A DNA stretch of 32,704 nucleotides from a virus. The position numbers and the translations under genes are program-made. How positions within the stretch are numbered: the stretch's first letter is position 1; each line of letters begins with the position of its first letter. Below the pieces are notes generated by a model that saw only the letters and a list, made by a program, of their open reading frames with translations, was not told the DNA's origin and made no database searches. Shown here one piece after another: positions 2,951 to 25,283 of the stretch. The DNA is taken from UHGV virus genome UHGV-0173505; one strand, 5' to 3'.

Positions 2951-3460
2951 ATGTTTGATTACCAAGTTTCCAAACATCCACATTTTGATGAAGCCTGTCG
3001 TGCATTTGCACTGCGCCACAATCTGGTGCAACTGGCAGAACGTGCAGGCATGAATGTGCAGATTCTGCGGAACAAGCTGAACCCAGCTCAGCCTCATTTA
3101 TTAACCGCACCAGAAATCTGGCTGCTTACCGATCTGACTGAAGATTCAACGCTGGTAGATGGTTTTCTGGCACAGATTCACTGCCTGCCATGTGTACCGA
3201 TTAATGAGGTTGCAAAAGAGAAACTGCCGCATTACGTCATGAGCGCAACTGCAGAGATCGGACGTGTTGCAGCAGGTGCGGTATCTGGTGATGTAAAAAC
3301 TAGTGCCGGTCGTCGTGATGCTATCAGCAGCATTAACTCTGTAACACGACTGATGGCGCTGGCTGCTGTTTCATTGCAGGCCCGTTTACAGGCTAATCCT
3401 GCGATGGCGAGTGCAGTTGATACCGTGACTGGCCTCGGTGCTTCATTCGGTTTGCTGTGA
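2951..3460 (+). CDS. cII: CII-like lysogeny establishment regulator (186 CII type)
   Basis: 169 aa from ATG 2951 ([23 protein letters not shown]...), same position and size as 186 CII; track ORF starts at an upstream TTG. Confidence 0.65.
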
Positions 3461-3467
3461 GGTGCTT

Positions 3468-3668
3468 ATGCTGACGAAAGAACCATCATTTGCATCGCTG
3501 CTGGTAAAACAAAGCCCGGCAATGCACTACGGTCACGGCTGGATCATGGGTGAGGATGGTAAACGCTGGCATCCGTGCCGTTCACAAGATGAATTGCTGG
3601 CAGAACTATCTACGAAAAAACGGGGGAACAAATGGCTATTGAAGGCGCTGCGGCGACTGTTCCATTAA
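3468..3668 (+). CDS. Hypothetical early protein (66 aa)
   Basis: ATG 3468 with GAGGTG RBS directly after cII; position of 186 fil/dhr-type early genes. Confidence 0.4.
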   Translation: MLTKEPSFASLLVKQSPAMHYGHGWIMGEDGKRWHPCRSQDELLAELSTKKRGNKWLLKALRRLFH

Positions 3669-6179: not shown

Positions 6180-8551
6180 TGAACTACAGCTATTCCTGGA
6201 ATGCTGAGAAAAAAGCAATCAATCCTTACGTAGAGACAGAAGAGCAATCTTCAGTTTCTGCGCTTTCAAACCTGATCGCTCTGTACGCTGCCGATAACGA
6301 GCAGGAACACCTGCGCCGCGAGGTACTGAGTGATCAGGTCTGGGAGCGTTATTTCTTTAATGAATCCCGTGATCCTGTCCAGCGCGAAATGGAGCAGGAT
6401 AAGCTCATTAGTCGGGCAAAGCTGGCGCATGAGCAGCAGCGTTTTAATCCAGATATGGTCATTCTGGCGGACGTCAATGCCCAGCCTTCCCATATCAGCA
6501 AGCCGCTGATGCAACGTATTGAATACTTCAGCAGCCTTGGCAGGCCAAAGGCTTATTCCCGCTATTTGCGTGAGACGATTAAGCCATGTCTGGAACGGCT
6601 GGAGCATGTACGCGACAGTCAGCTATCCACTTCTTTTCGCTTTATGGCAAGCCATGAAGGGCTGGACGGCCTGCTGATTCTGCCTGAAATGAGTCAGGAT
6701 CAGGTGAAACGCCTGTCCACCCTGGTAGCTGCGCATATGAGTATGTGCCTTGATGTAGCTTGTGGTGATTTGTATGCCACCGATGATGTTAAGCCAGAAG
6801 AAATCCGCAAGACATGGGAAAAGGTGGCTGCAGAAACCCTGCGACTGGATGTCATACCGCCTGCGTTTGAGCAACTCCGCCGGAAAAGAAACCGCCGCAA
6901 ACCTGTGCCTTATGAACTCATTCCGGGTTCGCTGGCGCGTATGCTGTGCGCCGACTGGTGGTATCGGAAATTATGGAAGATGCGTTGCGAATGGCGGGAA
7001 GAGCAGTTGCGTGCTGTCTGCCTGGTCAGCAAAAAAGCATCTCCCTATGTCAGCTATGAAGCCGTGATGCATAAACGTGAGCAGCGCCGTAAGTCGCTGG
7101 AGTTTTTCCGTTCTCATGAACTGGTGAACGAAGACGGCGACACGCTGAACATGGAGGATGTGGTAAACGCCAGCAGCAGCAACCCGGCGCATCGCCGCAA
7201 CGAGATGATGGCCTGTGTTAAAGGCCTGGAGCTTATCGCGGAAATGCGTGGTGACTGCGCCGTTTTCTACACCATCACCTGTCCGTCACGTTTCCATTCC
7301 ACGCTAAATAACGGCAGGCCAAACCCGACCTGGACCAACGCGACAGTAAGACAAAGCAGTGATTATTTGGTCGGCATGTTTGCTGCATTTCGTAAGGCGA
7401 TGCACAAAGCCGGATTGCGCTGGTATGGCGTGCGGGTGGCTGAGCCGCATCATGACGGTACAGTTCACTGGCACCTGTTGTGTTTTATGCGCAAAAAAGA
7501 CCGCCGCGCCATCACTGCATTACTGCGTAAGTTTGCCATTCGTGAAGACCGCGAGGAGCTGGGTAATAACACGGGACCACGCTTTAAGTCTGAGCTGATA
7601 AACCCGCGCAAAGGTACGCCAACAAGCTACATCGCGAAATACATCAGTAAGAACATTGACGGGCGTGGTCTGGCTGGTGAGATCAGCAAGGAAACGGGTA
7701 AATCCCTGCGTGATAACGCTGAATACGTTAATGCCTGGGCGTCTCTGCATCGTGTTCAGCAATTCCGCTTCTTTGGTATTCCGGGGCGTCAGGCTTACCG
7801 TGAACTGCGATTGCTGGCTGGTCAGGCGGCAAGGCAACAGGGGGACAAAAAAGCAGGTGCGCCGGTACTGGATAACCCGCGCCTTGATGCCATCCTGGCT
7901 GCTGCTGATGCTGGCTGTTTTGCCACCTACATCATGAAGCAGGGCGGCGTACTGGTTCCCCGCAAATATCACCTCATCAGAACCGCTTATGAAATTAACG
8001 AAGAGCCGACCGCCTATGGCGATCACGGTATTCGTATTTATGGCATCTGGTCACCCATTGCAGAGGGTAAGATCTGCACTCATGCAGTGAAGTGGAAAAT
8101 GGTTCGTAAAGCCGTTGACGTTCAGGAGGCGGCAGCCGACCAGGGCGCTTGCGCCCCTTGGACTCGTGGCAATAACTGTCCCCTTGCTGAAAATTTGCCC
8201 CAACAAGGGAAAGACAAATCAGCTGATGGGGATACCAGAACGGATATCACCCGTATGAATGACAAGGAGTTGCACGATTACCTGCACAGTATGAGCAAAA
8301 AAGAGCGCCGGGAACTGACAGCAAGATTACGCCTGGTGAAACCGAAACGGCGTAAAGACTACAAACAGCGAATTACAGACCATCAGCGACAGCAGCTTGT
8401 CTATGAACTGAAGTCCAGAGGATTTGACGGCAGCGAGAAAGAGGTCGATTTACTCCTTCGCGGTGGCAGTATTCCGTCAGGAGCAGGCCTGCGTATCTTC
8501 TATCGGAACCAGCGTTTGCAGGAAGATGATAAGTGGCGGGATCTGTATTAA
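6179..8551 (+). CDS. A: Replication initiation endonuclease A (rolling-circle nickase)
   Basis: 790 aa; HUH-type motif (VHWHLLCF) and tyrosine motif (YIAKYISKN); position upstream of the tum/cos region. Confidence 0.85.
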
Positions 8552-8620
8552 TTACGCGGGTTAACAATTCGTACTCTTAATAATACCAGGCATATCAGGC
8601 TGATGAACGTAAAAAAACGT

Positions 8621-8647
8621 TTTACATCAGTAAGATTATTATATACT
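8621..8647 (+). promoter_or_regulatory. Candidate sigma70 promoter for the tum/dinI-like operon
   Basis: TTTACA (8621-8626), about 15-nt spacer, TATACT (8642-8647); overlapped by a LexA box. Confidence 0.4.
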
Positions 8648-8663
8648 GTAAATATAAACAGTG
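8644..8663. promoter_or_regulatory. LexA (SOS) operator, TACTGTAAATATAAACAGTG
   Basis: Perfect CTGT-N8-ACAG with AT-rich spacer at 8646-8661, overlapping the -10 element. Confidence 0.7.
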
Positions 8664-8703
8664 GTTATGTATACAGTATTGCTTTGGTGTCATAGGAGGA
8701 AAG

Positions 8704-8892
8704 ATGCAGGACTATTTTTTGGAGTCTTTGAAGCTCCAGCGCATTGATTTTTTTCTTAAGCTTGTAGCGGCTAGTGAGTGTAGTGATGAAGAGAAGGGGC
8801 TGGCTCTGCAGTGGGTTTCTGAATTGACAGATGAACTCATGGCAAAAATCAGAAGCCACGAATACTGCCGGTCAATGGACGTCACCAGTTAA
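8704..8892 (+). CDS. Small SOS-controlled protein, candidate Tum-like antirepressor
   Basis: 62 aa, ATG 8704 with AGGAGGA RBS, directly downstream of the LexA box; position of 186 tum; assignment is by context. Confidence 0.4.
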   Translation: MQDYFLESLKLQRIDFFLKLVAASECSDEEKGLALQWVSELTDELMAKIRSHEYCRSMDVTS

Positions 8893-8903
8893 GGGGGATC
8901 TGT

Positions 8904-9137
8904 ATGCGCATTGAAATAATGATCGATAAAGAGCAGAAGATTAGCCAGTCTACACTGGACGCCCTTGAATCCGAGCTTTACCGTAATTTGCGCCCTCTGT
9001 ATCCCAAAACAGCAATTCGTATCCGTAAGGGCAGCGCCAATGGCGTTGAGCTGAGCGGGTTAAAACTGGATGAAGACAAAAAGCGAGTGATGGAAATTAT
9101 GCAGCAGGTCTGGGAGGACGACAGCTGGCTGCACTAA
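8904..9137 (+). CDS. DinI-family protein
   Basis: 77 aa starting MRIEIMIDK... and ending ...MEIMQQVWEDDSWLH; recalled from memory to resemble DinI in length and termini. Confidence 0.7.
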   Translation: MRIEIMIDKEQKISQSTLDALESELYRNLRPLYPKTAIRIRKGSANGVELSGLKLDEDKKRVMEIMQQVWEDDSWLH

Positions 9138-9244
9138 GTAACGTTGCGGGCGGCAGTACTTGATTCTGCCGTCGGCAAGGTTGAACAACGAGCAGGGCGA
9201 GGCGTTAGATAATAAATTACGGATTTTACAGCGGCTCGCTATTC

Positions 9245-10144
9245 TTAGAGTTGAAGAATACTTTTAATTCTCATAACTGATCCATCGAAAGTATCGGCTA
9301 TGTGATATATATTTTTTTTGTGGATTCGACTAATCCAAGATGCGGTAGCTTCTTTATCTCTGTCAACTATATAAACATCGGCTTTTGTGTTTTCTATTTC
9401 TGACCATATATGTTTATCATCGGGATTTATTTTAAGGCCAATGATGAATATTTTTGATGATTTTGAAATTTCTGTTTGAAAATCTTTTTGCTGGTTCGCA
9501 ATAAATGAAGGGCAGTGCAGAACAGTTTTGTTAGGATGGTACATTGCGACAGCTGGCGAAAGTGCGGTGTTACTTTTACAGTAATTTATTATCTTTTCAG
9601 CATTGTCATAGATGTCGATGGGACCCTCAAATATTGCATAACTTTTATCGTTAGGGATTTCAAATCTAAGATTAAAGATATTAGCACGTGGTATGAAGTT
9701 TACGGAACCGTGGATTTTTAATACTGGGATATTTTTTGGGATTCGTTCAGATGAACAGTATTGAATTAAATGTCCGACAGATGAAATAGCTTGCTCAATA
9801 AGTAAGTCATAATTTGTTGTTGCAACGCAAATGCTTTTCCTTTTTTTTAACATTTTGAATAATTTGATATATGTATTCCCTTCGTCAATAGTGAAATTTG
9901 CAAGGTAGGAACACATTTGTTTAAGTAATTCAGTTGTATCACTATTTCTTTCTTCGAAAAACCTGATCATACCTTTCTCAGGATCATCAATGAAACAATT
10001 CAAAAGGTCCCCTTCAATCGTTGAGGCGATACCGCCTTCTTCCCTCATTTTCAGGAGCAAATCTCTTCCTAAAGGTGGATTCGTTGGTTTGCATGGACCA
10101 CTGCCATAACTTGCACCTGCGCCGAATAAAAATAGAACTCCCAT
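9245..10144 (-). CDS. Standalone SIR2-like (sirtuin-fold, putative NAD-binding) protein; candidate anti-phage defence gene
   Basis: Ordered motifs FLFGAGASYGSG, TTNYD, KIHGS, FIIGLKINPDD match the GAGxS...TxNxD...HG pattern; start at ATG 10144 with GGAGG RBS (alternative ATG 10171); AT-rich. Confidence 0.6.
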   Translation of the reverse strand: MGVLFLFGAGASYGSGPCKPTNPPLGRDLLLKMREEGGIASTIEGDLLNCFIDDPEKGMIRFFEERNSDTTELLKQMCSYLANFTIDEGNTYIKLFKMLKKRKSICVATTNYDLLIEQAISSVGHLIQYCSSERIPKNIPVLKIHGSVNFIPRANIFNLRFEIPNDKSYAIFEGPIDIYDNAEKIINYCKSNTALSPAVAMYHPNKTVLHCPSFIANQQKDFQTEISKSSKIFIIGLKINPDDKHIWSEIENTKADVYIVDRDKEATASWISRIHKKNIYHIADTFDGSVMRIKSILQL

Positions 10145-10351
10145 GTAACCTCCAGCTTGTTGATTGAGCATGGGGTATTCTGCTTATTTTTGAGCGTAAT
10201 CTCTAGAACAAAATGAGCATATAAGCTTGCAAGTCTATGCCGCATGAATCCGCATGATCGTTTGAGGATTGTTTTAGCTGAGGTCCGCCAGGAATGGCGG
10301 GCTTTTGCTTATGTCATGCAGGTGCATGAAAACCACTACACAAAGCGGGCA

Positions 10352-10370
10352 GGCGTGGCGGGGATACGAG
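10352..10370. other. Probable cos (cohesive end) site, GGCGTGGCGGGGATACGAG
   Basis: Resembles the P2 19-nt cohesive end as I recall it (GGCGAGGCGGGGAAAGCAC); lies in the GC-rich non-coding stretch just downstream of portal gene Q. Confidence 0.45.
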
Positions 10371-10454
10371 CGCGCGCAACGGGGTAAAATGGCCAAAATC
10401 CGGCGCAGCCTCTGGCCCGCTGGCAGCCTCATTTTGCGTAGGGGGAAAATGTCA

Positions 10455-10494
10455 GGACAAAAAGAAACGCCCCGCAGAATGCTGCTGGGGCGTT
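10455..10494 (-). terminator. Rho-independent terminator downstream of Q (end of the leftward P-Q late operon)
   Basis: Stem AACGCCCCGCAG / CTGCTGGGGCGTT with 4-nt loop, followed on the minus strand by TTCTTTTTGT; about 35 nt past the Q stop. Confidence 0.55.
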
Positions 10495-10529
10495 GTGAGA
10501 ATTGGTCAGTTATTGATGTTGTGAGTATG

Positions 10530-14334: not shown

Positions 14335-15393
14335 ATGAAGAAGAATACCCGCTTTGCTTTTAACGCTTACCTGCAGCAGCTGGCGCGTCTGAACGGTGTG
14401 GCAGTTGAAGAACTGTCCAGCAAGTTCACCGTGGAGCCGTCTGTACAGCAGACGCTGGAAGACCAGATCCAGCAGTCCGCCGCTTTCCTGACGCTGATTA
14501 ACGTCACGCCAGTGACTGAGCAGTCCGGTCAGCTGCTGGGGTTGGGTGTTGGTAGCACCATTGCCGGAACCACTGACACCACCGCGAAAGAGCGTGAACC
14601 TGTCGATCCTACGCTGATGGTCGATGTGGAATACAAATGCGAGCAGACCAACTTTGACACGGTGCTGACCTACGCGAAGCTGGACCTGTGGGCGAAATTT
14701 CAGGATTTCCAGGTGCGTATCCGTGACGCCATCGTGAAACGTCAGGCACTGGACCGCATCATGATCGGCTTTAACGGCGTGAAGCGTGCGAAAACCTCAA
14801 ACCGTAGCGAAAACCCGCTGCTGCAGGATGTGAACAAAGGCTGGCTGCAGAAAATCCGTGAGGATGCACCGGATCACGTCATGGGCAGCACCACCACAGG
14901 CGGTGAAACCACACCGGGCGCGGTGAAAGTCGGTAAAGGTGGCGAATATGCCAACCTGGACGCCGTGGTGATGGATGCCGTCAATGAGCTTATCGACGTG
15001 GTCTACCAGGACGATGACGATCTGGTGGTGATTTGCGGTCGTGAACTGTTGTCTGACAAGTATTTCCCACTGGTCAACAAAGAGCAGGAAAACAGTGAAA
15101 AACTCGCTGCCGATATGATCATCAGTCAGAAACGCATGGGTGGCCTGCAGGCCGTGCGTGCGCCGTTCTTCCCGCCGAATGCGCTGCTGATCACCCGTCT
15201 GGATAACCTGTCCATCTACTGGCAGGAAGACACCCGCCGCCGTTCAGTTATCGACAACCCGAAACGTGACCGGATTGAAAATTTTGAATCCGTTAACGAA
15301 GCCTACGTGGTTGAGGACTACCGCTGCGCCGCACTGGTGGAAAACATCCAGATTGGCGACTTCAGCGCCGCCGCAGCAGAAACCGGAGCGTAA
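14335..15393 (+). CDS. N: Major capsid protein N
   Basis: 352 aa; recalled strong similarity to P2 gpN (TRFAFNAYL..., KFTVEPSVQQTL..., C-terminal GDFSAAAAETGA). Confidence 0.9.
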   Translation: MKKNTRFAFNAYLQQLARLNGVAVEELSSKFTVEPSVQQTLEDQIQQSAAFLTLINVTPVTEQSGQLLGLGVGSTIAGTTDTTAKEREPVDPTLMVDVEYKCEQTNFDTVLTYAKLDLWAKFQDFQVRIRDAIVKRQALDRIMIGFNGVKRAKTSNRSENPLLQDVNKGWLQKIREDAPDHVMGSTTTGGETTPGAVKVGKGGEYANLDAVVMDAVNELIDVVYQDDDDLVVICGRELLSDKYFPLVNKEQENSEKLAADMIISQKRMGGLQAVRAPFFPPNALLITRLDNLSIYWQEDTRRRSVIDNPKRDRIENFESVNEAYVVEDYRCAALVENIQIGDFSAAAAETGA

Positions 15394-15396
15394 TCC

Positions 15397-16047
15397 ATGA
15401 GCCTGAGTCCCGCACGGCAGCATCGCCTGCGCGTTCAGGCTGAACAGGTCGCCCGCGAGGGCGGCAGTGTTCGCCACGCATCGGGCTATGACCTGATGCT
15501 GCTGCAACTGGCGGAAGACCGCCGCCGTCTCAAGGGCGTTCAGTCCACGGTCAAAAAAGCGGAAATCAAGGTGGAGCTGCTGCCGAAGTACGCCGCCTGG
15601 GCAGAGGGGGTCCTGGCTGCCGGAGGCGCTCAACAGGATGACGTGCTGATGTACGTGATGCTGTGGCGCATTGATGCCGGAGATTATGCCGGGGCGCTGG
15701 AGATCGGGCGTCACGCCCTGCGTCATGGCTGGGTGATGCCGTTGGGTAACCGCAACGTGCAGACCGTGCTGGCAGAGGAAATGGCAGACGCGGCGCAGAG
15801 CGCAATGCTTGCCGCCACCGGCTTTGATGCTGATCTGTTGCTGCAGACGCTGGAGCTGACAGACGGTCTGGATATGCCGGACCAGTCACGGGCACGTCTG
15901 CATAAAGCGATTGGCGCTGTCCTGAGTGAAAGCAATCCGGCTTCCGCCCTTAATCATCTCAACCATGCGTTACAGCTCGATCCCCGCTGTGGCGTGAAAA
16001 AAGACAAACAGCAGCTGGAGCGCAGACTGCGCAATGACAGCCGCTGA
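15397..16047 (+). CDS. M: Terminase small (endonuclease) subunit M
   Basis: 216 aa directly after N, P2 order. Confidence 0.75.
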   Translation: MSLSPARQHRLRVQAEQVAREGGSVRHASGYDLMLLQLAEDRRRLKGVQSTVKKAEIKVELLPKYAAWAEGVLAAGGAQQDDVLMYVMLWRIDAGDYAGALEIGRHALRHGWVMPLGNRNVQTVLAEEMADAAQSAMLAATGFDADLLLQTLELTDGLDMPDQSRARLHKAIGAVLSESNPASALNHLNHALQLDPRCGVKKDKQQLERRLRNDSR

Positions 16048-16142
16048 CAGAACGTGCCCCCGCGCACGGGCGGCACGGGGTGGCGAAAGGCACTGCCACA
16101 TCAAAACCCCGTCCACCGCCCTTTATTTCAGGAGAAAGCAGC

Positions 16143-16607
16143 ATGAAGTTTGTTGCGCCAGAACAGGCACCGGAACAGGCGGAAATCATCAGAAATACAC
16201 CGTTCTGGCCTGATGTGGACCTGTCGGAGTTTCGCAGCGTGATGCGCACTGACGGCACGGTGACGCAGCCGCGTTTAAAGCAGGTTGCGCTGTCGGCAAT
16301 TTCGGAGGTCAACGCAGAGCTGTATGAGTTTCGCAGACGCCAGCAGATGCTGGGGTATGCCTCGCTGGCAGAGGTTCCGGCGGAACAGCTGGACGGCAAA
16401 AGTGAGCGCATTCAGCACTATTTCAACGCGGTTTACTGCTGGGCACGCGCCATGCTCAACGAACGTTACCAGGACTATGACGCCACGGCGTCCGGTGTGA
16501 AGCGGGGCGAGGAACTGGCGGAAGCAAGCGGTGATTTGTGGCGTGACGCCCGCTGGGCCATCAGCCGGGTGCAGGATGCGCCGCACTGCACAGTGGAGCT
16601 TATCTGA
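16143..16607 (+). CDS. L: Head completion/stabilisation protein L
   Basis: ATG 16143 with AGGAG RBS (MKFVAPEQ...); stop overlaps the X start. Confidence 0.75.
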   Translation: MKFVAPEQAPEQAEIIRNTPFWPDVDLSEFRSVMRTDGTVTQPRLKQVALSAISEVNAELYEFRRRQQMLGYASLAEVPAEQLDGKSERIQHYFNAVYCWARAMLNERYQDYDATASGVKRGEELAEASGDLWRDARWAISRVQDAPHCTVELI

Positions 16608-16810
16608 TGAAAGTGCTTGCGCATCAGTATGACACGGTGGACGCGCTTTGCTGGCGTCATTACGGGCGCACGCAGGGTGTCACGGAGCAGGTACTGAAGG
16701 CAAATCCGGGGCTTGCCGAATACGGCCCCTTTTTACCTCACGGGCTGCAGGTGGAGTTGCCGGACATTCCGACCACCACCACCGTGCAGACCGTCCAGCT
16801 ATGGGACTGA
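16607..16810 (+). CDS. X: Tail protein X
   Basis: 67 aa, same size and position as P2 gpX. Confidence 0.75.
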   Translation: MKVLAHQYDTVDALCWRHYGRTQGVTEQVLKANPGLAEYGPFLPHGLQVELPDIPTTTTVQTVQLWD

Positions 16811-16813
16811 ATT

Positions 16814-17029
16814 ATGACGCTTGAGCGAATCAGCGCCTTTATCACGTATTGCATCGCCGTCGTGCTGGCCTGGCTGGGCGATTTGTCCATCAAGGATGCC
16901 TCAACGCTGGGCGGCCTGATGATTGGTGTGCTGATGCTGGCTATCAACTGGTACTACAAACACAAAGCCTACCAGCTTCTGCGCGACGGGCAGATCTCGC
17001 GGGAGGACTATGAATCCATCAATCGTTAA
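16814..17029 (+). CDS. Y: Holin (two transmembrane segments; pinholin-like, 71 aa)
   Basis: Small membrane protein with two hydrophobic segments and charged C-terminus immediately before the endolysin. Confidence 0.6.
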   Translation: MTLERISAFITYCIAVVLAWLGDLSIKDASTLGGLMIGVLMLAINWYYKHKAYQLLRDGQISREDYESINR

Positions 17030-17522
17030 ACGCTGCCTTGTCGGGGCCGTGCTGGCTATTGCTGCCGCGCTACCGGGTTTTCAGCAGCTTCACACCTCCG
17101 TGGAGGGGCTGAAACTGATTGCCGATTACGAAGGCTGTCGTCTGCAGCCGTATCAGTGCAGCGCGGGTGTCTGGACCGACGGCATTGGTAATACATCTGG
17201 CGTCATTCCAGGCAAAACCATTACGGAACGACAGGCCGCGGAAGGGCTGATCTCCAACGTGCTGCGTGTGGAGCGGGCACTGGAAAGGTGTGTGAAGCAA
17301 CAGCCACCGCAGAAAGTGTATGACGCGGTGGTGTCATTTGCCTTCAACGTGGGGACAGGCAATGCCTGCAGTTCCACGCTGGTGAAATTGCTCAATCAGC
17401 GGCGCTGGGCGGATGCGTGCCGACAGTTGCCGCGCTGGGTTTATGTAAAAGGTGTGTTTAATCAGGGGCTGGATAACCGCCGTGCGCGGGAGATGGCCTG
17501 GTGTTTACAGGGAGCAAACTGA
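17010..17522 (+). CDS. K: SAR endolysin (phage-21 R-type lysozyme with N-terminal signal-anchor-release domain)
   Basis: Hydrophobic Gly/Ala-rich N-terminus, then YEGCRLQPYQCSAGVWTDGIGNT and FAFNVGTGN, recalled as similar to the phage 21 R lysozyme. Confidence 0.8.
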   Translation: MNPSIVKRCLVGAVLAIAAALPGFQQLHTSVEGLKLIADYEGCRLQPYQCSAGVWTDGIGNTSGVIPGKTITERQAAEGLISNVLRVERALERCVKQQPPQKVYDAVVSFAFNVGTGNACSSTLVKLLNQRRWADACRQLPRWVYVKGVFNQGLDNRRAREMAWCLQGAN

Positions 17523-17523
17523 A

Positions 17524-17901
17524 ATGAAAAAGAAATTAATCAGCGGACTGTTTCTGATGTTATGGATGGCGCTGTTAATCGCAGCAATGGTGTATCCGCA
17601 GGGGATTTTTCCGGTACTGGCAGCGTCCGGCGTTTGGGTAGCCTGTTTGCTGACATGGGCGGTAATTCCGGTAGCACTGGTTGCGTTAATTAAGAATGGC
17701 CCGCTCTGGCAGGAGTTGAGGGCATCTTTGCTGAAGACAATTACCCGAAAAGAAAACGTATTTATCAGCTGGGTGATGCGATTGCTGATTGTCGTAAGTC
17801 TCGCCTGGACGGGGTGGGCTATTACCCTGGTCTTTTATCTGCTGACCGTTATTGCCTTCTGGATCACCCGTAATCAGATGGCGCAACAGGTAGCAGCATG
17901 A
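17524..17901 (+). CDS. lysA: LysA-like lysis-cassette membrane protein (about 4 TM helices)
   Basis: ATG 17524 (MKKKLISGLF...); strongly hydrophobic; position of P2 lysA. Confidence 0.6.
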   Translation: MKKKLISGLFLMLWMALLIAAMVYPQGIFPVLAASGVWVACLLTWAVIPVALVALIKNGPLWQELRASLLKTITRKENVFISWVMRLLIVVSLAWTGWAITLVFYLLTVIAFWITRNQMAQQVAA

Positions 17902-18326
17902 ACCGGTTGCTGCTGGTTGTGCTGGCGTTATTACTGGCGGCGCTGGGCTGGCAGACGTGGCGGCTGGCTGATGCCAGCCAGACCATCAGCACGCAGGCAG
18001 ACGAGCTGCAGAGCAAAAGCCAGGCACTGGCAAAGAGCAACAGCCAGCTTATCAGCCTGTCCATTCTGACTGAAACCAATAACCGGGAGCAGGCGCGGCT
18101 CTATGCCGAAGCAGAACAGACCAGCACACAGCTGAGACAACGACAACGCCGGATCGAGGAACTGAAACGTGAGAACGAGGATTTACGCCACTGGGCTGAT
18201 ACTCCTTTGCCTGCTGACATTATCCGGCTGCGGGAACGTCCGGCACTCACCGGAGGTGCAGCTTACCGTCAGTGGTTGTCCGCGAGTGACGCCGTGTCGG
18301 CTGGAGCAGGCAGCACCGCGCACTAA
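17898..18326 (+). CDS. lysB: Rz-like inner-membrane spanin (LysB)
   Basis: N-terminal TM helix followed by Gln/Arg-rich coiled-coil region; contains the embedded lysC. Confidence 0.7.
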   Translation: MNRLLLVVLALLLAALGWQTWRLADASQTISTQADELQSKSQALAKSNSQLISLSILTETNNREQARLYAEAEQTSTQLRQRQRRIEELKRENEDLRHWADTPLPADIIRLRERPALTGGAAYRQWLSASDAVSAGAGSTAH

Positions 18327-18459
18327 CGGTGATCTGAATGCGTTGCTGGATGAAACGGAGGCCGCCTGGGCGGTCTGTGCAGACAAAGTGGACATGATTA
18401 TTGCGTGTCAGGAGCGAAACAGTGAACAAACCACAATCCCTGCGCCACGCCCTCAATAA
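18169..18459 (+). CDS. lysC: Rz1-like outer-membrane lipoprotein spanin (LysC), embedded in the +1 frame of lysB
   Basis: GTG start with GAGGA RBS; lipobox LTLSGC; Pro-rich mature part. Confidence 0.6.
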   Translation: MRTRIYATGLILLCLLTLSGCGNVRHSPEVQLTVSGCPRVTPCRLEQAAPRTNGDLNALLDETEAAWAVCADKVDMIIACQERNSEQTTIPAPRPQ

Positions 18460-18853
18460 AGCGGTGCCTTATGTCCGCAATAACCCGGACAAACTGCATC
18501 TGTTTGTGGATAACGGTTCGCTGGTTGCCACGGGGGCCAGCTCCATGTCGTGGGAGTACCGTTACACACTGAACGCGGTGATTGAGGATTTCAGCGGCGA
18601 CCAGAATCTGCTGATGGCCCCGGTTTTGCTGTGGCTGAGGGATAACCAGCCCGATGCCATCAATAACCCGGCGTTACGGGAAAAGCTATTCACCTTTGAG
18701 GTGGATATTCTGCGCAACGATGTCTGTGATATCAGCCTGAACCTGCAACTGACGGAACGTGTGCTGGTCAGCACTGACGGCAGAGTGTCGAGCGTTGAAG
18801 CTATAGCGGAACCTGATGCACCTGAAGAAATGTGGACGGTGAAACGTGGCTGA
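18422..18853 (+). CDS. R: Tail completion protein R
   Basis: Recalled similarity to P2 gpR (LRHAL...NPDKLHLFVDNGS...LTERVLVS); GTG 18422 with AGGAG RBS chosen, no in-frame ATG near the 5' end. Confidence 0.7.
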   Translation: MNKPQSLRHALNKAVPYVRNNPDKLHLFVDNGSLVATGASSMSWEYRYTLNAVIEDFSGDQNLLMAPVLLWLRDNQPDAINNPALREKLFTFEVDILRNDVCDISLNLQLTERVLVSTDGRVSSVEAIAEPDAPEEMWTVKRG

Positions 18854-19292
18854 ACTGCAGAAGGTGGACGACTGGCTGAGTGCCTTGCTGGCGAATCTGG
18901 AACCAGCCTCGAGAAGCCGCATGATGCGCCAGCTGGCGCAGGAACTTCGCCGGACACAGCAGCAGAATATCAGGATGCAGCGCAACCCTGACGGCAGCAG
19001 CTATGAACCGCGACGGGTAACAGCACGCAGTAAAAAAGGCCGTATCAAACGTCAGATGTTTGCAAAGCTGCGCACCACAAAATACCTGAAAACTGCCGCC
19101 AGCACCGACTCTGCCAGCGTGCAGTTTGAAGGCAAGGTGCAGCGCATTGCCCGCGTTCACCATTACGGCCTGCGAGATCGCGTTAGTCGTAAGGGACCGG
19201 AGGTGCGTTACGCAGAGCGTCGCCTTCTGGGTGTAAATGATGATGTTGAGGCAATGACCCGCGACATGATTCTGCAATGGCTGGCGGGGTGA
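18846..19292 (+). CDS. S: Tail completion protein S
   Basis: Recalled P2 gpS-like sequence (LAQELRRTQQQNI...); GTG start overlapping the R stop. Confidence 0.7.
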   Translation: MAELQKVDDWLSALLANLEPASRSRMMRQLAQELRRTQQQNIRMQRNPDGSSYEPRRVTARSKKGRIKRQMFAKLRTTKYLKTAASTDSASVQFEGKVQRIARVHHYGLRDRVSRKGPEVRYAERRLLGVNDDVEAMTRDMILQWLAG

Positions 19293-19295
19293 TCT

Positions 19296-19313
19296 TTGTA
19301 TCAGCACTGATAC
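19296..19313. promoter_or_regulatory. Ogr/Delta-type late-activator site (TGT-N12-ACA) of the V-operon late promoter
   Basis: TGTatcagcactgatACA, a perfect palindrome, 57 bp upstream of the V start codon. Confidence 0.55.
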
Positions 19314-19360
19314 AAGTTGCAGCACTGCCGCCTTTCTTCCCCTGATGGCAACCTTTCCCT

Positions 19361-19939
19361 ATGAACGCACAATTAACCGAAATCATGCGCCTTATCACCA
19401 ACCTGATCCGCACAGGGGTAGTCACCGAAGTGGACAGGGAAAACTGGCTTTGCCGGGTGAAAACGGGCGAGCTTGAAACCAACTGGATCAGCTGGCTGAC
19501 GCTGCGTGCCGGGAATGCCCGTACATGGTGGCGACCATCGGAAGGTGAGCAGGTGGTGCTGCTGAGTCTGGGCGGCAATCTGGAAACCGCCTTTGCGCTG
19601 CCCGCTGTCTATTCGAATCAGTTCGCACCACCGTCGACGTCGGCGGACGCCTGCGTGACAGAACATCCTGACGGTGGCTGGTTTGAATACGAACCCGCCA
19701 CCGGGCGCTGGTATGTCAGGGGCATCAAATCAATGGTCATTGAGGCTGCTGACAACATCACCATGAAAACCAGTGAGTTTGTACTGGAGGCTGACCGCAC
19801 GCGCATTAACAGCGAAGTGGTGATCAATGGTGGCGTTACCCAGGGCGGCGGAGCGATGAGTTCTAACGGGATCGTGGTTGATGCGCATCAGCATACTGGC
19901 GTCCTGAAAGGCGGCGATACAACCGGAGGCCCGGTATGA
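19361..19939 (+). CDS. V: Baseplate spike/hub protein V
   Basis: 192 aa, first gene after the late promoter; P2 order V-W-J-I-H-G. Confidence 0.8.
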   Translation: MNAQLTEIMRLITNLIRTGVVTEVDRENWLCRVKTGELETNWISWLTLRAGNARTWWRPSEGEQVVLLSLGGNLETAFALPAVYSNQFAPPSTSADACVTEHPDGGWFEYEPATGRWYVRGIKSMVIEAADNITMKTSEFVLEADRTRINSEVVINGGVTQGGGAMSSNGIVVDAHQHTGVLKGGDTTGGPV

Positions 19940-23299: not shown

Positions 23300-23892
23300 T
23301 GAAACCTGTTTTTGATGAAAATGGGCTGGCTACAGTGCCGGGTGATATGCGTTGTTTTTATTATGATGCTGAAACATCTGAGTATACGGGCTGGTCTGAT
23401 GAATATATTAATACTGGCGTAAGTATGCCCGCCTGTTCAACTGGTATTGACCCTGGCGAAAACATTCCGGGAAAAGTGGCTGTATTTACAGGTAAGGGAT
23501 GGAGCCATGAAGAGGACCATCGCAATGAGACTGTTTACTCAATCGAAAATGGCGCAGCTGTTACAGTGGATTATATCGGTGCCATCAAAAACGGTTATGT
23601 CACGCTTTCACCGTTAACGCCATATGATAAATGGGATGGTGAGAAATGGGTGACAGATACTGAGGCACAACACGGTGCCGCAGTAGAAGCGGCAGAAGCT
23701 CAGCGCCAGTCACTGATTGATGCAGCAATGGCTTCCATCAGTCTGATTCAACTGAAATTGCAGGCCGGACGCAAACTGACGCAAACAGAAACAACCCGAC
23801 TAAACATCGTGTTGGATTACATTGACGCGGTGACGGCAACAGACACCAGCACCGCGCCGGATGTCATCTGGCCTGAACTGCCGGAGGCGTAG
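23299..23892 (+). CDS. G: Tail fibre assembly chaperone G (for the current H variant)
   Basis: 197 aa immediately after H; C-terminus ends ...DTSTAPDVIWPELPEA. Confidence 0.75.
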   Translation: MKPVFDENGLATVPGDMRCFYYDAETSEYTGWSDEYINTGVSMPACSTGIDPGENIPGKVAVFTGKGWSHEEDHRNETVYSIENGAAVTVDYIGAIKNGYVTLSPLTPYDKWDGEKWVTDTEAQHGAAVEAAEAQRQSLIDAAMASISLIQLKLQAGRKLTQTETTRLNIVLDYIDAVTATDTSTAPDVIWPELPEA

Positions 23893-24298
23893 GCCATTCA
23901 ATATCTGGAGCACTGGAGGTATCAACCAGTTCCAGTGCGTCCAGATAATCCAGCCACAAATTATATTGCGCCAGTTCCTCACCTTTCAGACGACCAATAG
24001 CCGCTTTACCAGGCCATTGCTTGGTATTCATATATTCGTTGGACTGATTAATCAATTGCTGTTTTTTCAATTCGGCTGCGGCAATCTGTTCCTCATGTGT
24101 TGGTGGTGGAATTTCAGACCATGCAGGAAAACCATTTTCCCCAGCGATACGGATTTTTCCTTTCGGCGGTAATCCGGAAAACTCAATATACACCTGCTCA
24201 TCAACTTCAACAGCATCATCTGGCCATGAATTTACATTGATGTAGTCATCCTTAAGCGCAGGATTCACAAAAATATTTAAAGATGGACTAAAAAACAC
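23864..24298 (-). CDS. Alternative tail fibre assembly chaperone G' (inside the invertible segment, inverted orientation)
   Basis: 144 aa, ATG 24298; C-terminus ...DTSSAPDIEWPTPPAVQAR parallels G; convergent with G, 29-bp 3' overlap. Confidence 0.7.
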   Translation of the reverse strand: MFFSPSLNIFVNPALKDDYINVNSWPDDAVEVDEQVYIEFSGLPPKGKIRIAGENGFPAWSEIPPPTHEEQIAAAELKKQQLINQSNEYMNTKQWPGKAAIGRLKGEELAQYNLWLDYLDALELVDTSSAPDIEWPTPPAVQAR

Positions 24299-24299
24299 A

Positions 24300-24647
24300 T
24301 CACCCTCCTATAGCAACATAACAGCCCGATACAGGATTTGCGGCAGTCGCTACGCTGGAAAAACCACGAAAGCCGCTTTTTGTGATTGCGGAGGCAGATA
24401 GTATTCCGGCACCCGAAGGTGTATGCCCCACGTGGCTGGCAACCATCACGTAGCACGCCGACGGAAAAGCGAAAGGGAAATTGTTTAAATATCCCGCATC
24501 ATCCCCCAGACTTCCCCCAAACTGCCCCACTCCCCACTGGATAATAAGTGGTCTCCGAACGCCAGAAATAATTAATGGAATTGCTACATACCCATTCACC
24601 AACATAGCGCCGGTTGTTGCGCCAGCCAGAGCCAATTCCCCCAAACC
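24300..24647 (-). CDS. Promoterless alternative tail-fibre C-terminal cassette H' (expressed only after inversion fuses it to the constant part of H)
   Basis: Reverse complement from the crossover at 24647 reads in frame with H codons ...TYL/GLGELALAGATTG... for 116 codons to TGA at 24300-24302. Confidence 0.6.
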   Translation of the reverse strand, partial: GLGELALAGATTGAMLVNGYVAIPLIISGVRRPLIIQWGVGQFGGSLGDDAGYLNNFPFAFPSACYVMVASHVGHTPSGAGILSASAITKSGFRGFSSVATAANPVSGCYVAIGG

Positions 24648-24661
24648 AACGTTTAAGAAAA
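24636..24661. promoter_or_regulatory. Right crossover site of the invertible segment (TTCCCCCAAACC-AA-CGTTTAAGAAAA)
   Basis: Inverted copy of the inner half of the left site (GGTTTGGGGGAA vs GGTTTGGGAGAA); about 50 bp upstream of the invertase gene. Confidence 0.6.
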
Positions 24662-24710
24662 TGCAGAGGTAACAGCTAACTGGCATCATCTCCGGTTTTT
24701 ATTCAGGGGG

Positions 24711-25283
24711 ATGATCAGGCTTATTGGCTATGTACGCGTGTCAACAAATGACCAGAACACCGATTTGCAACGTAATGCACTGAACTGCGCGGGATGTGAG
24801 CAGATTTTTGAGGACAAAATCAGTGGCACTAAGTCCGACAGACCGGGGCTGAAAAAACTACTCAGGACACTATCGGCAGGAGACACGCTGGTTGTGTGGA
24901 AGCTGGACAGGTTGGGGCGCAGTATGCGGCATCTTGTTACGCTGATAGAAGAGTTGCGCCAGCGTGGTGTGAATTTCAGAAGCCTGACTGACAGTATTGA
25001 TACCAGTACCCCAATGGGCCGTTTCTTTTTTCATGTCATGGGTGCCCTGGCTGAAATGGAACGCGAACTGATAGTTGAACGTACCAGGGCGGGGCTGGCT
25101 GCAGCCCGTGCTAAAGGCAGAGTAGGTGGACGCCGTCCTAAGTTGACCAGCGAACAGTGGGCACAGATTGGGCGTTTACTCGAGGCCGGAGAATCAAGAC
25201 AGCGTATTGCACTGATTTTTGATGTAGGCGTTTCTACCATTTATCGAAAATTTCCGGCAAATAAGAACAATAAATCTCCCTGA
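24711..25283 (+). CDS. Serine-recombinase DNA invertase (Hin/Gin/Cin/Pin family)
   Basis: 190 aa; N-terminal catalytic motif IGYVRVSTNDQNTDLQ, resolvase core, C-terminal HTH (VGVSTIYRKF). Confidence 0.9.
   Translation: MIRLIGYVRVSTNDQNTDLQRNALNCAGCEQIFEDKISGTKSDRPGLKKLLRTLSAGDTLVVWKLDRLGRSMRHLVTLIEELRQRGVNFRSLTDSIDTSTPMGRFFFHVMGALAEMERELIVERTRAGLAAARAKGRVGGRRPKLTSEQWAQIGRLLEAGESRQRIALIFDVGVSTIYRKFPANKNNKSP

Follow-up and report, generated by a model that had tools for sequence, protein, structure and literature searches.

The window, the whole 32,704-nt stretch of viral DNA analyzed here, contains five tightly coupled genes at positions 16814–18459, all on the + strand, encoding a holin, an endolysin, a LysA-like membrane protein, LysB, and LysC. 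The upstream boundary of this lysis cassette is a P2 gpX-type gene, the stop of which lies one codon ahead of the holin ATG, and the downstream boundary is a gpR-type gene with a GTG start inside the 3′ end of lysC, a start that agrees with the RefSeq annotation of phage 500465-1. The features are the following.

16607–16810, + strand: P2 gpX-type tail/baseplate gene (PF05489, E = 1.1e-33; 61% identity to P2 X)
16814–17029, + strand: holin of 71 aa, assigned to class II and the HP1 holin family (PF16080, phrog_20, hydropathy)
17010–17522, + strand: endolysin of 170 aa, GH24 muramidase (PF00959, E = 2.6e-40; best PDB match P1 Lyz, 1XJT)
17524–17901, + strand: LysA-family membrane protein of 125 aa (phrog_162, NF038378, hydropathy)
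17898–18326, + strand: lysB, i-spanin (Rz-like) of 142 aa (TIGR03495, phrog_89)
18169–18459, + strand: lysC, o-spanin (Rz1-like) lipoprotein of 96 aa (NF038368, PF23793, lipobox)
18422–18853, + strand: P2 gpR-type tail completion gene (PF06891, E = 7e-46; 51% identity to P2 R)

The family matches of the cassette genes are far beyond chance. The endolysin gene starts with ATG and overlaps the holin gene by 20 nt, and the junction of the lysA-like gene and lysB is an ATGA overlap. Because the flanking genes are those of P2 X and P2 R, the P2-type frame of the cassette that the original prediction had described is real, and homologues of LysA, LysB, and LysC are present within it. The P2 cassette itself, Y-K-lysA-lysB-lysC, occupies the same position between X and R and has the same overlapped spanin genes. 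Antisense open reading frames in 16738–18456 matched no PHROG family, and scans for promoters and terminators over 15300–19500 gave counts at the chance level.

The endolysin matched PF00959 at 138.1 bits (cut-off 22.3) and carries the Glu-8aa-(Asp/Cys)-5aa-Thr triad of GH24 enzymes as E41/C50/T56, equivalent to E42/C51/T57 of P1 Lyz. As originally predicted, the protein has an N-terminal signal-anchor domain; the Gly/Ala-rich segment at residues 9–24 (CLVGAVLAIAAALPGF), which follows K7 and R8, is of the signal-anchor-release (SAR) type by sequence. The protein has the features by which SAR endolysins are recognized, namely a weakly hydrophobic N-terminal helix rich in Gly, Ala, and Ser, basic residues before it, and a catalytic domain directly after it. 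The mean Kyte-Doolittle value of the segment (2.26) and its Gly/Ala/Ser/Thr fraction (0.44) are identical to those of P1 Lyz and are also similar to those of an R21-like protein and HP1 Lys. Among solved relatives in the PDB, P1 Lyz (1XJT) ranked first at 96.8 bits (E = 1.3e-26) compared with 69.3 bits for R21 (3HDE), and the alignment to 1XJT took in the N-terminal helix, whereas that to 3HDE covered the catalytic domain only. Identity to P1 Lyz is 37% over 172 aa including the N terminus, and the stretch EGCRxxPYxCxAGVWTDGIGNT is common to the endolysin, P1 Lyz, and HP1 Lys. The active-site motif reads E41-G-C43...C50...T56, and in R21, which lacks a cysteine switch, the position of C50 is taken by a catalytic Asp. 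The proposal that the endolysin motifs match those of the phage 21 R lysozyme is contradicted by these scores and by the catalytic Cys; neither the Glu/Asp/Thr triad, nor the lack of a cysteine switch, nor a closest similarity to R21, which together typify R21-type enzymes, was found. A low-confidence AF2 model of the endolysin (mean pLDDT 67, below 50 at residues 42–69), which is suited to a coarse ranking of folds only and not to cysteine geometry, gave 1XJT as the top match with 172 aligned columns.

P1 Lyz (1XJT, 1XJU), the prototype SAR endolysin with disulfide isomerization, combines E42, C44, C51, and T57 with C13 in its SAR domain. Residues C50, C43, and C9 of the endolysin correspond to C51, C44, and C13, as is expected for a member of the P1 Lyz subclass, with C43 as the candidate caging cysteine and C9 at the N-terminal edge of the SAR segment. 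The position of the latter differs slightly, the SAR-domain cysteine being inside the helix in P1 Lyz and at the helix edge here. The residue-level mechanism of P1 Lyz, involving C13, C44, and C51, was reportedly worked out by Xu et al. (2005, Science 307:113). C9, E41, C50, and T56 were present in all 35 homologues and C43 in 34, the single exception (P0090) having Gly instead. In a set of 113 diverse relatives, 23 proteins have both the E-C-C-T motif and a hydrophobic domain at the N terminus; 21 of these have a cysteine in that domain, compared with none of the four that bear a transmembrane (TM) domain but no catalytic Cys (three with Asp, one with Pro). The E-C-C-T motif also occurred in 28 relatives that have no N-terminal TM domain, and the Cys pair alone is therefore no proof of a disulfide switch. 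The results give good support to the endolysin being a SAR endolysin closest to P1 Lyz, which, from what is known of P1 Lyz and HP1 Lys (PMC6116005, PMC7312051), would be exported uncleaved, tethered in an inactive form, and released on depolarization, and suggest that C9, C43, and C50 may form a disulfide switch.

The N terminus could be read instead as a Sec signal peptide that is cleaved off, like that of Lys44 from phage fOg44, such that a soluble periplasmic enzyme would be otherwise held inactive by the proton motive force. The K7/R8 n-region, the short hydrophobic core, and the A-A-A at residues 18–20, which could suit signal peptidase, are compatible with this reading, and SignalP scored the N terminus of HP1 Lys as a signal peptide (PMC7312051). 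We nevertheless regard cleavage as very unlikely, for C9 is invariant and, across distant relatives, the catalytic-Cys motif goes together with a cysteine in the hydrophobic domain, which is unexpected for a discarded peptide; moreover, phmmer aligned the protein with full-length P1 Lyz (1XJT) from residue 13 onward, which takes in most of the helix (13–24 of 9–24), and the hydropathy and composition match those of a SAR domain, that of P1, which is uncleaved.

The first gene of the cassette (16814–17029, ATG start) encodes a 71-aa protein with two hydrophobic segments, at residues 6–22 and approximately 29–47, in agreement with the two TM segments originally predicted, and with a charged C terminus ending in a KHK...R tail. 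It matched PF16080 (HP1 holin family, holin superfamily II) at 36.7 bits (cut-off 28.8; E = 4.3e-9), whereas the match to PF04971, the family of the phage 21 S holin, reached 23.2 bits (E = 7e-5) and fell under the cut-off of 26. The protein also belongs to phrog_20 (E = 1.9e-26), the same PHROG as the S21-like EssD, the HP1 holin, and the Midge holin, and PGAP names near-identical proteins HP1 family phage holin. Direct comparison with HP1 Hol gave an hhalign probability of 6%, and BLASTP found no link either; the connection to HP1 Hol is therefore one made by the Pfam HMM alone.

Membership in the S21 family was considered and rejected. BLASTP returned only a 20-residue match over the second TM domain (TMD2; E = 0.08), and hhalign of the family profile with EssD, the K-12 homologue of phage 21 S, gave a probability of 20% over 25 columns, again over TMD2. 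The dual-start motif, through which S21-type pinholins yield an antiholin with an additional positive charge at its N terminus, is absent from the holin: Met1 stands alone at the start (MTLER...), and the second Met of the protein is residue 36. All 28 homologues retain M1; a further Met close to it occurs in only one of them (P0214, MTMERV), and no basic residue separates the two Met codons there. The first TM domain (TMD1) has a mean Kyte-Doolittle value of 2.12, compared with 0.56 in EssD and 2.10 in P1 LydD, and so is not the weakly hydrophobic, releasable (SAR-like) helix of S21-type pinholins; because it is far more hydrophobic, the S21 mechanism of TMD1 release is not simply transferable. 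The TMD2 segments do share a small-xxx-small-xxx-small motif plus an Asn, such that S30/G34/G38 of the holin align with G40/S44/G48 of the S21 type and N45 aligns with N55. We have kept the relation to S21 as what appears from sequence to be a distant superfamily resemblance, in which the two are joined only by the permissive phrog_20 cluster.

The original prediction had interpreted the cassette as a mosaic, with a lambdoid S/R module of the phage 21 type introduced by recombination into a lysA/lysB/lysC frame of the P2 type. The holin does have the 71-aa length of S21, and in phage 21 (S21/R21) and DLP12 (EssD/RrrD), as here, a 71-aa holin with two TM segments is encoded directly upstream of a GH24 SAR endolysin. 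The weak PF04971 match, the shared phrog_20, and the aligned TMD2 residues point the same way. Furthermore, no homology was found between the holin and P2 Y (93 aa), a member of another holin family (phrog_175), or between the endolysin and P2 K, which has no N-terminal TM domain and no significant similarity to it. Set against these points are the family scores and the low EssD hhalign probability, the lack of a dual start, and the closer kinship of the endolysin, with its catalytic Cys, to P1 Lyz and HP1 Lys. The phage records argue likewise, as all 83 that encode a homologue of the holin are P2-like-sized genomes and none is lambdoid (they include Fels-2, SopEPhi, P2-likes of Klebsiella and Yersinia, EtG, and Midge); for comparison, 129 phage records have the P2 Y type of holin. 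The holin and endolysin genes show no break in GC content (0.54 and 0.57) relative to the upstream L and X genes and lysB (0.59–0.60) and to R (0.54). Finally, the same type of pair occurs in Haemophilus phage HP1 (Peduoviridae, Hpunavirus): its holin shares PF16080 and phrog_20 with the holin here, its Lys (34% identity) likewise has EGC...C...T and a cysteine within the hydrophobic N-terminal domain, and its hol and lys genes overlap and have no dual start. The HP1 cassette differs in following the tail tube gene and in having no LysA; of the spanins, only a LysB-like ORF25 is annotated there, and no LysC is. The lambdoid/P2 mosaic is largely refuted by these observations, and we give it hardly any credence.

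The 71-aa protein is an HP1-family class II holin and probably a pinholin, the latter assignment being made because it shares its family with HP1 Hol and its gene adjoins that of a SAR endolysin. Pinholins make small lesions through which the membrane depolarizes but folded proteins do not pass, and so do not support lysis by a cytoplasmic endolysin. Experiments with HP1 hol and lys characterized them as a pinholin and a SAR endolysin on the basis of lethality without lysis, no leakage of beta-galactosidase, and azide-sensitive phage release (PMC7312051). A weakly hydrophobic TMD1 defines the S21 type, not pinholins generally; P1 LydD is an experimentally supported pinholin with a TMD1 as hydrophobic as noted above, so this property does not exclude a pinholin. 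A competing explanation makes the protein a class II holin of the canonical, large-hole kind, which would activate the SAR endolysin by depolarization, like P1 LydA for Lyz. SAR endolysins indeed also work with canonical holins, LydA among them (PMC6116005, PMC9025707), and the TMD1 examined here is strongly hydrophobic and not SAR-like. In addition, the heptameric pinhole model of the near-identical cognate holin of Klebsiella phage KP12 (peg.320) was of low confidence, with a pLDDT of approximately 51 (PMC9902359), and the curators of phage Midge, whose annotation lists a class II holin, a SAR endolysin, an antiholin, and spanins, put "holin class II" rather than pinholin. The behavior of HP1 Hol, the type member of the family, and the hydrophobic TMD1 of LydD weigh against a large-hole holin, as do the adjacency and translational overlap with the SAR endolysin gene, which are typical of pinholins (PMC9025707); we consider it an unlikely alternative to the pinholin assignment. 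The P1 arrangement is of a different kind, with lydD downstream of lyz and lydA/lydB unlinked, and not an upstream holin gene as found here.

LysB matched TIGR03495 at 173.9 bits (cut-off 92.75; E = 1.9e-51) and phrog_89 with E = 1e-45, and it has a TM segment at residues 4–20, a periplasmic helical domain after this segment, and no cysteines. It is 31% identical to P2 LysB. The lysC gene, in the +1 frame relative to lysB, starts with GTG and has GAGGA ahead of it. Its product has a predicted signal peptide (MRTRIYATGLILLCLLTLSG) followed by C21 as the predicted lipidated residue, in the lipobox L-S-G-C21, and it matched NF038368 at 124.2 bits (cut-off 27; E = 1.8e-36) and PF23793 at 57.3 bits; identity to P2 LysC is 41%, from residue 1. 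The TM-anchored i-spanin, the o-spanin with a lipobox, and the overlapped start in the +1 frame are those of a two-component spanin of the P2 type. Rz/Rz1-like spanins had been predicted with Rz1 embedded, in +1, and initiated at GTG; the families, the frame, and the start codon were confirmed, but lysC is not embedded: the two genes share 158 nt, and lysC continues for 133 nt after the stop of lysB. Such an overlapped architecture is that of P2, in contrast to the embedded lambda-type Rz/Rz1 of phage 21 and DLP12. Truncated o-spanins are a recurrent error in the public records.

The protein encoded between the endolysin gene and lysB has four hydrophobic segments and matched phrog_162 (E = 2e-43) and NCBIfam NF038378 (DNZ54_00345; 123.7 bits, cut-off 40), in accord with the LysA-like membrane protein that had been predicted to follow the holin/endolysin pair. 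The same PHROG takes in P2 LysA (E = 1.8e-67), to which the protein is 26% identical over 132 aa, and the "putative antiholin" of Midge (E = 2.1e-54). The models, the four TM segments, and the gene position are those of the P2 LysA family, and we regard the protein as a putative lysis-timing regulator or antiholin. Members of phrog_162 lie downstream of two unrelated holin/endolysin pairs, namely, in P2, the class I-type holin Y and the cytoplasmic endolysin K, and, here and in Midge, a class II holin of the HP1 type and a SAR endolysin. The lysA slot is empty in 186 and holds other small membrane open reading frames in Fels-2. Given this placement beside unrelated pairs, and a slot that is empty or refilled elsewhere, LysA could act on a target shared by these systems (membrane energization, SAR release, or the spanins); that it is a generic lysis-timing module rather than a holin-specific antiholin is, in our estimation, a speculative and rather improbable proposal. 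LysA is repeatedly labeled "endolysin" in the public records. Database proteins of 296 aa that join the endolysin to LysA were considered as a programmed fusion, which we rejected because the junctions vary by entry, each arising from another single-base frameshift.

On the observed gene structure, family memberships, conservation of motifs and cysteines, and distribution, we think it likely that the region is an intact late-operon lysis module of a P2-like (Peduoviridae) prophage of the Fels-2/Wadgaonvirus type, working by a pinholin and a P1-Lyz-type SAR endolysin. After Sec export, the endolysin would stay inactive in the inner membrane, anchored there by a weakly hydrophobic SAR helix that is not cleaved. 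On the model of P1 Lyz, its catalytic C50 would be disulfide-locked to C43, and C9 would sit at the cytoplasmic boundary of the bilayer. Meanwhile the 71-aa holin would build up in the same membrane until, at its set time, it forms lesions, presumably small, that collapse the proton motive force. The SAR helix would then exit the bilayer, C9 would attack the C43–C50 disulfide, and the muramidase, with C50 freed, would degrade the peptidoglycan. The four-TM LysA-family protein may adjust the timing, and the LysB/LysC spanin complex would disrupt the outer membrane.

Matches to the cassette were found in 1038 of 5426 complete E. coli genomes, approximately a fifth, at nucleotide identities of 97–99.6% (97–98% in phages, with E. 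coli chromosomes reaching 99.6%). Escherichia phage 500465-1 (Wadgaonvirus), Klebsiella phages KP12 and 4LV2017, Escherichia phage Cartapus, and E. coli prophages have the same five genes in the same order, and their cassettes differ from the present one by point substitutions only; identity is 97.4% for KP12. E. coli ZF34 carries a homologous prophage, approximately 97% identical, between rcdA and ybjL. PGAP names the five products HP1 family phage holin, lysozyme, DNZ54_00345 family protein, LysB, and LysC. For KP12, a P1-Lyz-like SAR endolysin within a P2-type cassette has already been described, and lytic spots of the purified protein on K. pneumoniae were reported, although the discussion of the same paper calls the activity against Gram-negative bacteria unverified (PMC9902359). 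The cassette is thus ordinary, being nearly unchanged in so many complete E. coli genomes and already known from PGAP annotation in over a thousand of them, from named phages, and from published cassettes (500465-1, KP12). Experimental work already exists on its prototypes, HP1 Hol/Lys and P1 Lyz, and the cassette carries little weight as a discovery. What the analysis provides is a corrected label: the module is native to Peduoviridae, its holin being of the HP1 type and its SAR endolysin of the P1 Lyz type, and is not a phage-21 or lambdoid import. The module is very common in prophages of E. coli, Klebsiella, and Salmonella, and the mode of action of its holin bears on very many prophages.

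The Salmonella prophage Fels-2 (Felsduovirus) has a more distant version of the cassette in the same X–R interval and the same order (STM2716–STM2713), with 80% identity for the holin (STM2716), 92% for the endolysin, 77% for LysB, and 82% for LysC. Its GenBank notes read "2 transmembrane domains; putative holin" and "similarity to Lyz of P1". There are two differences from the cassette described here: lysC starts with ATG instead of GTG, and the lysA slot contains two unrelated small membrane open reading frames, STM2714.2 (phrog_7356) and STM2714.1, and no LysA-family gene. Annotation of the Fels-2 endolysin without its SAR domain is another recurrent error in the public records.

The plus strand between 16607 and 18853 was found to be a tiling of translationally coupled genes, with a strong family match for each of the seven genes from X to R:

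16607-16810, plus strand: X, of the P2 gpX type (Phage_tail_X match)
16814-17029, plus strand: holin, ATG start, 71 aa (PF16080)
17010-17522, plus strand: endolysin, ATG start preceded by GGGAGGA, 20-nt overlap with the holin gene, 170 aa (PF00959)
17524-17901, plus strand: lysA-like gene, 125 aa (phrog_162 and NF038378)
17898-18326, plus strand: lysB, ATGA overlap with lysA, 142 aa (TIGR03495)
18169-18459, plus strand: lysC, GTG start preceded by GAGGA, +1 frame of lysB, 96 aa (NF038368 and PF23793)
18422-18853, plus strand: R, of the P2 gpR type (P2_Phage_GpR match)

Antisense ORFs in the region were without family support, and promoter and terminator scans gave results at chance level only. 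We therefore conclude that the coordinates and gene calls of the original prediction, including the GTG start of lysC, are correct.

The endolysin is a GH24 muramidase (PF00959, E = 2.6e-40). Its best solved relative was P1 Lyz (PDB entries 1XJT, 96.8 bits, described as the active enzyme, and 1XJU, 92.5 bits, described as its secreted inactive state), whereas phage 21 R (R21; 3HDE and 3HDF) and its DLP12 homologue RrrD (4ZPU) scored 68.6-69.3 bits. By BLASTP, the protein shared 37% identity with P1/P7 Lyz over 172 residues, N-terminus included, 34% with HP1 Lys, and 37% with the R21-like RrrD in the catalytic domain only. The active-site block ADYEGCRLQPYQCSAGVWTDGIGNT matched NAEGCRRDPYMCPAGVWTDGIGNT of P1 Lyz, so that E41, C43, C50, and T56 correspond to E42, C44, C51, and T57 of that enzyme; R21 has Asp at the position of C50. 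On the basis of these scores and of the cysteine at this position, the proposed affinity to the phage 21 R lysozyme was not upheld.

In tethered P1 Lyz, the catalytic C51 is reportedly blocked by a disulfide to C44, which C13 of the released signal-anchor-release (SAR) helix is said to isomerise. The hydrophobic helix of the endolysin spans residues 9-24, following K7 and R8, and the single cysteine of this region, C9, lies at its N-terminal edge. The mean hydropathy of the helix (2.26) and its Gly/Ala/Ser/Thr fraction (0.44) both equal those of the P1 SAR domain. Across 35 homologues of 80-99% identity, C9, E41, C50, and T56 were invariant and C43 was retained in 34. In a wider sample of 113 more diverse relatives, drawn from a 50%-identity library, 21 of the 23 proteins with both an N-terminal hydrophobic domain and E-C-C-T carried a cysteine in that domain, compared with none of the four TM-bearing relatives lacking the catalytic cysteine (three with Asp and one with Pro there). 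Another 28 had E-C-C-T but no TM domain, and the cysteine pair alone is therefore not diagnostic. The three-cysteine combination, by contrast, fits the P1 Lyz model. We consider it very improbable that, in place of a SAR domain, the N-terminus carries a signal peptide that is cleaved off. An AF2 model of low quality from a shallow alignment (pLDDT 67) ranked 1XJT first (172 aligned columns). A high-confidence model of the near-identical KP12 endolysin gave a TM-align score of 0.83 to 1XJT, and lytic spots were reported for the purified protein (PMC9902359). The Fels-2 endolysin is annotated in public records from an internal Met, which cuts off its first 12 residues, among them the conserved cysteine and the beginning of the SAR helix.

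The holin has hydrophobic segments at residues 6-22 (TMD1) and about 29-47 (TMD2), and its net charges (0 in the N-terminal flank, -1 in the loop, and +2 over the first ten C-terminal residues) fit a class II N-in/C-in topology. It belongs to the Pfam HP1 family (36.7 bits, cut-off 28.8); against the P21 S family it scored 23.2 bits, short of the required 26. In phrog_20 it is grouped with the S21-like EssD of K-12, HP1 Hol, and the Midge holin, whereas P2 Y is in phrog_175. Profile comparison with EssD aligned TMD2 only, at a probability of 20%. There S30, G34, and G38, which are nearly invariant, pair with G40, S44, and G48 of S21-type proteins, and N45 pairs with N55, a match that may serve as a lead but not as proof. 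No dual-start motif was found in the holin. The mean Kyte-Doolittle hydropathy of TMD1 was 2.12, far above the 0.56 of S21-type proteins; P1 LydD, an experimentally supported pinholin, has 2.10. HP1 Hol, type member of the HP1 family, was lethal without causing lysis or releasing beta-galactosidase, and was needed for phage release; HP1 Lys alone lysed E. coli, and HP1 release was azide-sensitive (PMC7312051). A canonical large-hole class II holin is unlikely, though it keeps an appreciable share of our belief.

The most likely mechanism, in which the steps beyond gene identification are drawn from homology, is a small-lesion holin coupled to SAR release. The endolysin would be exported by Sec and tethered to the membrane, small lesions formed by the holin would depolarise that membrane, and the released SAR helix would allow C9-driven disulfide isomerisation to free C50. 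The muramidase would then break down peptidoglycan and the LysB/LysC spanins would disrupt the outer membrane, with timing tuned by LysA. The original observation holds, and its interpretation holds in part: the functional class is probably right, while the phage 21 affinity, the lambdoid origin, and the term "embedded" for lysC (read "overlapped") do not stand.

The whole window represents a P2-like prophage, carrying genes for integrase, CI, replication, portal, terminase, capsid, and tail as well as ogr, and E. coli ZF34 carries a homologous prophage between rcdA and ybjL. Compared with P2, identities were 61% for X, 26% for LysA (same phrog_162), 31% for LysB, 41% for LysC, and 51% for R, whereas the holin and endolysin showed no significant similarity to Y and K. 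Relative to P2, it is therefore correct to speak of a P2 frame that carries another holin/endolysin pair. Holin homologues were found by tblastn in 83 phage records, all of P2-like genome size and none lambdoid, among them Fels-2, SopEPhi, RE2010, SEN8, Klebsiella prophages, Yersinia P2-likes, Erwinia EtG, and Escherichia Midge; P2 Y-type holins occurred in 129. The mosaic with a lambdoid phage is thus scarcely credible. Within Peduoviridae, this pair and the P2 Y/K pair represent alternative modules. The annotation of Fels-2 lists a "2 TM putative holin" and an "endolysin similar to P1 Lyz", and that of Midge a class II holin, an SAR endolysin, a putative antiholin, and spanins. The cassette shared 97-98% identity with Escherichia phage 500465-1 (Peduoviridae, Wadgaonvirus), Klebsiella phages KP12 and 4LV2017, and others, and as much as 99.6% with E. 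coli chromosomes; it was matched in 1038 of 5426 complete E. coli genomes, 776 of these covering at least 80% of the query. The module is of low interest because it is already known and very common.

Mosaicism does exist, but inside the family, at the lysA slot, which lies downstream of the endolysin gene and upstream of lysB and differs from one P2-like phage to another. A LysA-family gene occupies it in the window (17524-17901), P2, and Midge; Fels-2 has two small, unrelated membrane ORFs there (3211-3586 of the sequence examined), and in phage 186 it is empty (around 2730 of the sequence examined). The LysA family is thus found with two unrelated holin types. The GC content of lysA (0.495) is below that of its neighbours (0.54-0.60). 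LysA-family proteins are miscalled "endolysin" in public records via phrog_162. Public databases also hold many endolysin::LysA fusion proteins of 277-296 aa (one, P0012, from 30 contigs), joined at the equivalent of 17480-17530 by differing single-base frameshifts near endolysin codons 160-164 into the lysA frame. A programmed fusion was rejected because the junctions are heterogeneous, and the sequences point to probable assembly errors or prophage decay.

From its GTG start, LysC begins MRTRIYATGLILLCLLTLSGC, aligns with P2 LysC from residue 1, and has a normal lipoprotein signal with the lipobox LSGC. Its gene overlaps lysB by 158 nt and runs 133 nt past the lysB stop, an arrangement of the "overlapped" P2 type and not the "embedded" lambda type (Kongari et al., PMC6139136; see also the PGAP note). 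LysB, the i-spanin, has no cysteines, likewise in Fels-2, whereas P2 LysB has two; LysC, the o-spanin, has four periplasmic cysteines (C37, C43, C70, and C80). Any disulfide of the spanin complex would therefore be within or between LysC molecules. In public records, the RefSeq o-spanin of 500465-1 is a 38-aa fragment, and the PGAP lysC start in E. coli ZF34 lies 14 codons into the lipoprotein signal peptide.

Elsewhere in the window, a minus-strand ORF of 308 aa (9245-10171) is SIR2-like (PF13289, 25.4 bits, barely over the cut-off), with weak PADLOC matches to the PDC-S25 and SIR2 models. It lies inside a 37% GC island (about 8550-10500), with a DinI-like gene (8904-9137) on one side and the portal gene on the other. 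The same slot in E. coli ZF34 holds a NotI-type restriction-modification pair, so the site resembles the hotspot for anti-phage cargo known from P2, here with a candidate single-gene SIR2 defence. A Hin/Gin-type serine invertase is encoded on the plus strand at 24711-25283 (Resolvase and HTH_7, E = 2.3e-53), adjoined by two minus-strand ORFs (23864-24298 and 24300-24689) whose ZF34 prophage equivalents carry the annotations tail fibre assembly protein and gp53-like domain protein. With the ORFs named from these equivalents, the arrangement suggests a putative invertible host-range switch like that of Mu or P1.
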